From NCBI GenBank assembly GCA_964016885.1, contig OZ024757.1:41230001-41294000 (forward strand): a DNA stretch of 64,000 nucleotides, in the 5' to 3' direction. This document shows positions 2,769 through 39,300 of this stretch, piece by piece (position 1 is the first letter of the stretch; each line of letters begins with the position of its first letter). A program made the translations under genes and the position numbers. The notes beneath the pieces were generated by a model. The model was given only the letters and a program-made list of their open reading frames with translations. It searched no databases and was not told where the DNA came from. The stretch comes from Eledone cirrhosa. Lineage: Eukaryota.

Positions 2769-2813
2769 AGTCATAGTTCTTTCGTCACACACTCTGTGAC
2801 CTCTTCAGTGACT
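2769..2813 (-). ncRNA. Minimal type I hammerhead ribozyme in PLE pLTR
   Basis: AGUCA-CUGAAGA-G-GUCACA(GAGUG)UGUGAC-GAAA-GAAC-UA/UGACU: perfect 5-bp stem I, 6-bp stem II, intact core. Confidence 0.9.
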
Positions 2814-20440: not shown

Positions 20441-20636
20441 AGGAAAAACTATGATCCCGACGGCAGAGCTCAAGCCGTTTCGACGGCTATTTCTGAAGTC
20501 CGGGAAATAGCCATCGAAACGGCTTGAGCTCTGCCGTCGGGGTCATACTTTTTCCTATTTCCCACTCTACTACCCTAAGTATTGAGTACTCTGGTGCGTT
20601 ATGGTCCATCTGGTCCCTTACCATAATTCTTTTGTT
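20441..20636 (+). mobile_element. One-sided palindromic element, family B (copy 2), containing an HHR 3' half
   Basis: Arms of about 53 bp over 20441-20556; GAAA-CGGC(UUGAGCUCU)GCCG-UC/GGGG at 20516-20542; shared tail. Confidence 0.82.
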
Positions 20637-20662
20637 ATATGCATGTATATATATATATATAT

Positions 20663-20872
20663 ATAAAATGAAATTTTTGGAACCCCCATGGATGAGCTCC
20701 TGCCATTTCAACAAATAGATCTGAACTGCCATTTAGATCTTTCTGTTGAAACAGCAGGAGCTCAGCTGTTGGGGTCCCAAATTTTTCATTTTATCCACTC
20801 TACTACTCCTAGTATTGAGTACTTTGGTGAGTAATTGTCTAACAGAATTCACCACCTCTATTCTGATTCCTA
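20663..20872 (+). mobile_element. Family B, diverged copy 3
   Basis: Imperfect palindrome 20663-20794 with GAAA-CAGC..GCTG-TT/GGGG, then CCACTCTACTACTCCTAGTATTGAGTACT tail. Confidence 0.72.
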
Positions 20873-22942: not shown

Positions 22943-23140
22943 TAGGAAAAAGTAAGACACCGACGGCTGAGCTCAAGCCGTTTCAACGGCTAATTCTGGA
23001 CTCCAGAATTAGCCGTCGAAACGGCTTGAGCTCAGCTGTCGGGGTCTTACTTGTTCCTATTACCCACTCTACTACCCTAAGTATTGAGTACTTTGGTGCG
23101 TTATGGTCCACCTGGTTCCTTACCACATTTCCTTCGTTAT
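22943..23140 (+). mobile_element. Family B, copy 4
   Basis: Palindrome centred on 23001; GAAA-CGGC(UUGAGCUCA)GCUG-UC at 23018-23040; shared tail. Confidence 0.82.
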
Positions 23141-23236: not shown

Positions 23237-23242
23237 ATATAT

Positions 23243-23546
23243 AGGGAAAAAAGATGAAATCGAAAATGCAACTGGAGTTTTTTTTTTTATATTTATTTGG
23301 TTCCTTTACCGGTTTGGCAGTTCTTGTGCTTTTCACATCAGATGTGAGAAAAACCACAGACCCTCAATCTCAATTCTACTTTTGAAAAGCAGAAGAACTG
23401 TGAAACTCGTAAAGAAACCAAATAAATATATTTTAAAAAAAAAGACTCCAGCCGCATTTTCGATTTTATCTTTTTTCCTTATATTTTCACTCGTGTAGCA
23501 CACCTCAGTTTTTTTTCATTTTGTAAAAAAACCTCACTTTCTAATG
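23243..23546 (+). mobile_element. Family D element with inverted 5' arm and two opposed HHR copies
   Basis: Arms of about 93 bp (23243-23336 and 23382-23482), then unpaired tail; homologous to 33385-33610. Confidence 0.82.
23379..23414 (+). ncRNA. Minimal hammerhead with U3-A8 variant core (family D)
   Basis: CUU-UUGAAAA-GCAG(AAGAA)CUGU-GAAA-CUCG-UA/AAG, then AATAAA; the opposite arm (23304-23336, minus) gives stem III CCGG and stem II 3' CUGC. Confidence 0.72.
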
Positions 23547-31273: not shown

Positions 31274-33384
<2,111 letters not shown>

Positions 33385-33385
<1 letters not shown>

Positions 33386-33610
33386 ATAAAGAAAAAGGGA
33401 TGAAATCGAAAATGCAACTGAAGTCTGATTTTTTTTTAAAATATATATATTTATTTGGTTCCTATAAGGGACCAAATAAATATATATATTTTAAAAAAAA
33501 ATAAGACTTCAGTTGCATTTTCGATTTCATCCCTTTTTCTTTATACTTCCACCCGTGTAGGACACCTCGGTTATTTTTCATTTTGTAAAAAAAACCTCAC
33601 TTTCTAATAT
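33385..33610 (+). mobile_element. Family D copy: near-perfect 160-bp palindrome plus tail
   Basis: Arms 33385-33463 and 33466-33545; tail matches 23483-23546. Confidence 0.85.
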
Positions 33611-39073: not shown

Positions 39074-39300
39074 GGTGGATTGGCAGTATCGGTAGAGGTT
39101 TGGACGCCACGTTTTGCAGCATAGAGTTACGGCCCTTTAGTTTCTGAATTCAAATCCTGCTGTGGTTAACTTTGCCTTTTATCCTTATGGATGAAAGGCA
39201 AAGTTAACCTCGGTGGGATTTGAACTCAGATCGCCAAGGGACATAACTTTATGCTGGAAAGCATGGCACCTGACCCTCTACTGATACAGTCAATCCACCG
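39074..39300. mobile_element. Inverted pair of S1 SINE 5' halves
   Basis: Joined at ATCC-TTAT-GGAT (about 39181-39192). Confidence 0.85.

Follow-up and report, generated by a model that had tools for sequence, protein, structure and literature searches.

Insertions of a Penelope-like element that end at a predicted hammerhead cut in Eledone cirrhosa suggest a minor use of self-cleaved RNA as template

The palindromic repeats considered here come from a 64,000-nucleotide stretch of Eledone cirrhosa DNA (assembly GCA_964016885.1, contig OZ024757.1, forward-strand positions 41,230,001 to 41,294,000; hereafter the window) belonging to a 3.0-Gb genome. Judged by its sequence, one of them, family D, is the pseudo-long terminal repeat (pLTR) of a Neptune-type Penelope-like element (PLE), and it carries a predicted hammerhead ribozyme (HHR). 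We propose that RNA cut by its own HHR serves as a minor template in vivo, a reading that would hold for the family D copy at 33385 and for a small class of insertions, and to which we assign a probability of about 0.65. The 33385 palindrome is likely a 5'-truncated pLTR insertion copied from RNA that had already been cut. The usual apex of family D is the putative transcription start site (TSS), not the cut, and copies ending at the cut amount to a few per cent, a minority that seems genuine.

Junction positions are counted from the predicted cut, +1 being the base directly after GUA. The 33385 palindrome (33385-33545) shows 95.7% self-complementarity and a fold z of -26, and is followed on its 3' side by a unique tail reaching to about 33608. 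Its junction reads GGTTCCT (33457-33463), AT (33464-65) and AAGGGACC (33466-73), and HHR sequence from upstream of the cut, looked for in both arms of this copy, was found in neither; in these respects, and in the apex at 33464-65, an earlier sequence-only reading was borne out. That reading also had both arms starting at the cut, which is true of the direct arm, beginning at +1 (33466), but not strictly of the inverted arm, which stops at +2, 1 nt short of it. The junction can alternatively be read with a shift of 1-2 nt, the reference having TA at -2/-1. By itself this copy is compatible with chance, and the claim is carried by genome-wide counts.

Family D numbers at least 8,174 copies, two tail 28-mers matching 6,492 and 1,682 times. 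A targeted search for palindromes in which both arms reach +3 and the gap is at most 30 nt gave 110 strand matches, from which 51 loci were analysed. The commonest arm end in this set was +1 (17 of 102 arms). Once the anchor edge was excluded, 16 of the 49 arms free of microhomology ended there (p = 2e-8 under a uniform null, with correction for the search window). Inserts of at least 2 nt were flagged by script in 21/51 junctions, four of which (L042, L301, L306, L308) were set aside as substitution artefacts; all 17 that remained, untemplated or refolded, place an arm at -2..+2. Run in an upstream control window (27 loci by script and 12 from the listing, 1 dropped as duplicate context), this search found such inserts at 0 of 40 loci (p = 1.6e-5 versus 17/51). 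Given that inserts occur at TSS junctions too, they mark likely template ends. The two arms are also coupled: where one ends at +1 its partner lies at -2..+3 in 13 of 15 cases (p = 0.007 versus pooled ends). By comparison, 30 of the 114 copies with a TSS-started direct arm were examined, and the inverted arm of only 2 of these ends at +1. For direct arms disrupted between -19 and +7, 90 of 378 matches were examined and 48 of these discarded as indels or jumps; of the 42 true ends left, 11 lie at -2..+1 (p = 0.007). The p-values presume independent insertions, and a small number of loci (L260, L298/L299) are duplicated locally.

The pattern is repeated by a second family, F2, which looks like a pLTR by its architecture and was used as a replicate. 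Its sequence at the cut differs from that of family D, and in its 16 short palindromes, 15 of them analysed by script and one by eye, an arm lies at -2..+2 in 6 of 7 insert junctions versus 1 of 9 others; a search for short palindromes of a third family, F3, gave none. These data bear on the proposal that the 33385 copy and its like are ordinary short or centrally deleted palindromes whose apex falls at the cut by chance, aided by TA microhomology and an excess of short complementary DNAs (cDNAs). Such an origin would be in keeping with the TA at -2/-1, with the dominance of microhomology joins in many search windows and with the 13 of 93 unselected copies that end downstream of +9, but it does not account for the concentration of insert junctions at the cut against none in the upstream control, for the coupling of both arms there, or for the recurrence of the pattern in F2, and we regard it as improbable.

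Some junctions have features of their own. A family D arm at G000:C1:152839370-152839443 stops at -1, and its last ~10 bases are repeated four times, resembling reiterative copying at a template end. At L036 and L038 (family D) and L412, L487 and L495 (F2) the inserts at cut-site junctions, 2-20 nt long, are perfectly palindromic, which suggests a hairpin intermediate when two cDNA ends join. We considered whether cut-site copies are enriched in the CTTCCAC subfamily and gave the idea up (5 of the 14 cut-site copies shown versus 1,682 of 8,174 tail matches).

The predicted HHR of family D has the core U3 U4 G5 A6 A7 A8 A9, helix II GCAG/CUGC, then GAAA, ACCGGU and the GUA at which it would cut. 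A descriptor requiring the 3-8 pair, G5 A6, A9, G12 A13 A14, UH and three helices gave 132 identical locus matches; within the window it gave 4 matches versus 0-2 across 20 shuffles, and it picked out three other HHR families there as well. Core positions are 95-100% identical across 188 arms. Most copies have a palindromic helix III, ACCGGU, and a helix I of 3-4 bp, whereas the HHR of the 23243 copy is somewhat degenerate, with helix I weakened and loop III non-palindromic. The fold score is -0.4 kcal/mol for the monomer versus -21.1 for the dimer (best dimer -22.5). The sequence-only reading had identified a U3-A8 variant; the descriptor matches that core, and the variant is one already described, minimal U3-A8 HHRs with dimer activity and weak cleavage in vitro having been reported in PLEs (Cervera and De la Pena 2014, PMC4209133).

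The ends of unselected copies give a different picture. Among the first 100 tail matches, 94 sequences were retrieved, of which 93 could be mapped; the direct-arm 5' ends of these fall as follows: 21 upstream of -96, 54 at -75..-62, 3 at -61..-1, 2 at +4 and 13 at +11..+60. The peak near -72 lies 30 nt below a TATA box at -102 and, from that spacing, is probably the transcription start. About 80% of these arms run through the entire HHR. Since 54 of the 93 start near the putative TSS and none at +1, uncleaved RNA would be the main template. A direct arm starting at +1 does occur at L031, one of six rows outside the mapped 93. The cut-site apex was not upheld as a property of the family (54/93 start near -72, 0/93 at +1, 2 at +4), and the histogram of 5' ends and apices that had been proposed as a check came out divided, unselected copies peaking near -72 and short palindromes being enriched at the cut. 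The suggestion that the template was the 3' self-cleavage product retains the cut-end enrichment, the arm coupling, the template-end-like junctions and the repeat in F2, but it is not family-wide and the cleavage is a predicted one.

Several observations weigh against the use of self-cleaved RNA. None of the mapped unselected direct arms starts at +1 (0/93), and within the subfamily of the 33385 copy none of 30 does, one starting at +3. When the anchor was shifted to +9 so as to include downstream positions (61 loci), the microhomology-free ends formed a plateau from -2 to +9, with 5 at +1 and 3-4 at its neighbours, so that with downstream positions the signal is a step or boundary at the cut and not a spike. 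Plain microhomology joins (+3/+7, 12/61; CCGG, 6/61; also -4/+6), several of which require a template running through the cut, make up the largest single classes of junction near it, and in a mixed-arm listing the ends are fairly flat by eye. The apparent ends of F2 fall mostly at -1/-2, more often than at +1, and would have to be read as +1 plus an added A. In the 33385 copy itself the T/A boundary is identical in both arms, so that fold-back of a single cDNA is possible there. The Rfam hammerhead model gave no match to the family D HHR at E up to 10, the family is too young and uniform for compensatory changes in the helices to show, its two main subfamilies giving a helix I of 3 or 4 bp, and for Poseidon of Anolis HHR cleavage is described as dispensable in vitro, with no RNA-seq ends at the cut (Frangieh et al. 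2024, PMC11167929).

The boundary shows in the counts: upstream of -4 the microhomology-free ends of the 61-locus set almost disappear (2/40 versus 37% expected, p = 3e-6). This fits cleaved templates with some trimming, and it also fits a stalling of reverse transcriptase (RT) on uncleaved RNA at a folded or protein-bound HHR (helix I or a helix III dimer duplex), or a 5' exonuclease stopping there, with no ribozyme cleavage at all. Such a block would produce the plateau from -2 to +9 and the -1/-2 ends of F2, and it would agree with the poor cleavage of minimal PLE hammerheads in vitro (PMC4209133). On the other hand, arms of family D end most often at +1 (16 arms, versus 8 at -1/-2), RT reads across the whole HHR in some 80% of unselected direct arms, and an inverted arm whose partner started at the TSS seldom stops at +1 (2/30). 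A fixed protein footprint would also not suit both families, since the distance between the cut and the internal priming site is ~80 nt in D and ~140 nt in F2. We consider stalling unlikely, though a more serious contender than chance.

The assignment of family D to the PLEs rests largely on L241, a full-length element in which two direct pLTRs, 4.9 kb apart, flank an interrupted open reading frame (ORF) of ~1,080 aa. The ORF has RT motifs by eye and a Pfam GIY-YIG match (E 3.5e-5, above the cut-off); the Pfam search of this interrupted copy gave no RT match. The cysteine linker before GIY-YIG is intact in L084 (CGRSNCVTC) and has its first C altered in L241; it conforms to the CX2-5CxxC pattern common to Neptune and Nematis (Craig et al., bioRxiv 10.1101/2021.04.23.441226). 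Family D copies are flanked by (TA)n, indicating microsatellite targeting, and display the architecture of endonuclease-bearing (EN+) PLEs: direct or inverted pLTRs, a one-sided tail, and inverted arms in many copies. Contigs from four runs aligned to L241, which as contigs carry no molecule ends, drop in depth at the putative TSS and at two (TA)n junction points, and the latter match the two RT start sites that bound the tail in PMC11167929. The first ATG of the L241 ORF (7481-7754, - strand) lies ~170 nt downstream of the predicted cut; cleavage would thus strip the cap yet keep the ORF whole.

The palindromic copies in (TA)n do look like those of a miniature inverted-repeat transposable element (MITE), that is, a DNA transposon that ends in inverted repeats, carries internal deletions and needs no RNA template. 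Direct repeats of family D sequence, however, flank an ORF with RT and GIY-YIG, an inverted arm is missing from many copies, only one side bears the tail, and 5' ends accumulate 30 nt below a TATA box; with the autonomous RT-bearing copy at L241 we discarded a MITE origin and give it practically no credence. A tandem non-LTR retrozyme was rejected as well: family D copies are dispersed single arms or palindromes, and the sole tandem, a 581-bp duplication containing a family D palindrome (L076, 4600-5600), is local and includes flanking sequence.

A transposition scheme can be sketched in which self-cleaved RNA has its place. The enzyme would nick both strands of a (TA)n target and two separate cDNAs would be made, with priming at the tail end for one and at the internal +80 site for the other; both would be extended towards the RNA 5' end and their 3' ends joined head to head. 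Uncleaved RNA would yield the common apex at the transcription start (-72), priming in its 5' pLTR giving TSS-ended copies and priming in its 3' pLTR giving copies that run upstream. Cleaved RNA, in a few per cent of events, would yield +1 apices with untemplated or refolded inserts, both arms having run off the same RNA 5' end. Cleavage would probably proceed through an RNA dimer formed by the palindromic ACCGGU helix III and so cut both templates together, which would explain the coupling of arms at the cut. The full proposal, that PLE insertions record HHR cleavage in vivo, with a helix III dimer cutting both templates inside the transposition complex before reverse transcription to the cut and head-to-head joining, we hold only tentatively, at somewhat less than even odds.

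Two passes of RT over RNA of one source element are consistent with a comparison of the arms in 113 palindromic copies. Subfamily variants are shared between arms (83/84, 110/113, 17/17 and 65/66), while the boundary of a variable T(n)A(m) tract is matched in only 18/60 (17.75 when shuffled). A later change in the tract may also account for the unshared boundary. The tract itself (+20..+36, at many loci) has a near-constant length and a boundary that is free between copies and between arms. At L015/L017 and L103 the tail is present on both palindrome arms, indicating that priming at the distal site is open to either cDNA.

The element type and the U3-A8 core are already known kinds. PLEs are known for inverted 5'-truncated copies, a one-sided tail and microsatellite targets (Craig et al.), and family D shares these with Neptune/Nematis-type EN+ PLEs, as it does the RT with C-terminal GIY-YIG, the CX2-5CxxC linker, the pLTRs and the HHR within them. 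It differs in its tail, ~63-70 nt as against 30-40, and in its distinct class of insertions ending at the HHR cut, of which there is no mention in the available part of Craig et al. With the minimal PLE hammerheads of PMC4209133 it shares the U3-A8 covariation of the C3-G8 pair, a short helix I, a short palindromic helix III and predicted dimer activity, but its helix II is of 4 bp and there is no extra base between 9 and 10.1. A literature search, which did not extend to supplements, found no report of PLE insertions ending at an HHR cut.

The scheme proposed for family D has a parallel in Poseidon of Anolis (PAc; PMC11167929): nicking and extension of both target strands, a pair of internal RT start sites that bound the tail, and unprocessed RNA as the main template. 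PAc is described without RNA-seq ends at the HHR cut, while a minority of family D genomic insertions end there; in family D, moreover, the ORF starts ~170 nt past the cut and would be left whole by cleavage. The closest earlier case in which genomic junctions reveal the position of a ribozyme cut is the HDV-like (hepatitis delta virus-like) ribozyme of R2 (Eickbush et al. 2013, PMC3774820), where genomic 5' junctions likewise mirror the position of the cut and are variable where the cut is the element end. Cleavage in R2 makes the normal 5' end, whereas in family D it would be a minor route, by a hammerhead, inside a pLTR.

The question addressed is whether minimal animal-PLE hammerheads, for which in vivo evidence is stated as absent in PMC4209133, cut in vivo and whether the cut RNA is used in transposition. 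If our reading is right, the junctions give indirect in vivo evidence of cutting and a rough size for the cleaved-RNA route, a few per cent of insertions, by a computation applicable to any genome rich in PLEs. The ratio of cut-site to TSS apices would then measure, family by family and from sequence alone, how active the ribozyme is in the germ line.

Table 1. Positions in the window of the family D and F2 features discussed.
Feature	Position	Strand	Remarks
Inverted arm of pLTR fragment, internal TATA junction (+80) to +2	33385..33463	-	
2-nt junction insert AT	33464..33465	.	likely untemplated; identical junction at independent locus L253
Direct arm starting +1 (first base past predicted cut), through +80 into tail	33466..33545	+	
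One-sided tail between two putative reverse-transcription start sites	33546..33608	+	two (TA)n junction points; PMC11167929
AT-rich microsatellite, likely insertion target, continuing left of 33000	33000..33384	.	
Predicted minimal type I HHR, U3-A8 core, cut 23411/23412	23379..23415	+	23243 copy
Second copy of family D, with inverted arm reaching about -29, direct arm starting at putative TSS (23340), and tail	23241..23545	+	
Canonical C3-G8 HHR of pLTR-like family F2, used as replicate	2770..2813	-	

An Rfam scan of the window showed no hammerhead among the 150 of 585 matches listed, which were microsatellite noise only. The window is dense in Penelope-like fragments within (TA)n tracts. Three further pLTR-like families have canonical C3-G8 minimal hammerheads (8614, +; ~58970, +; 28406, -; 2811, -), and other palindromic repeat families of similar anatomy lie in (TA)n at 22944-23137, 20441-20839 and 39074-39299.
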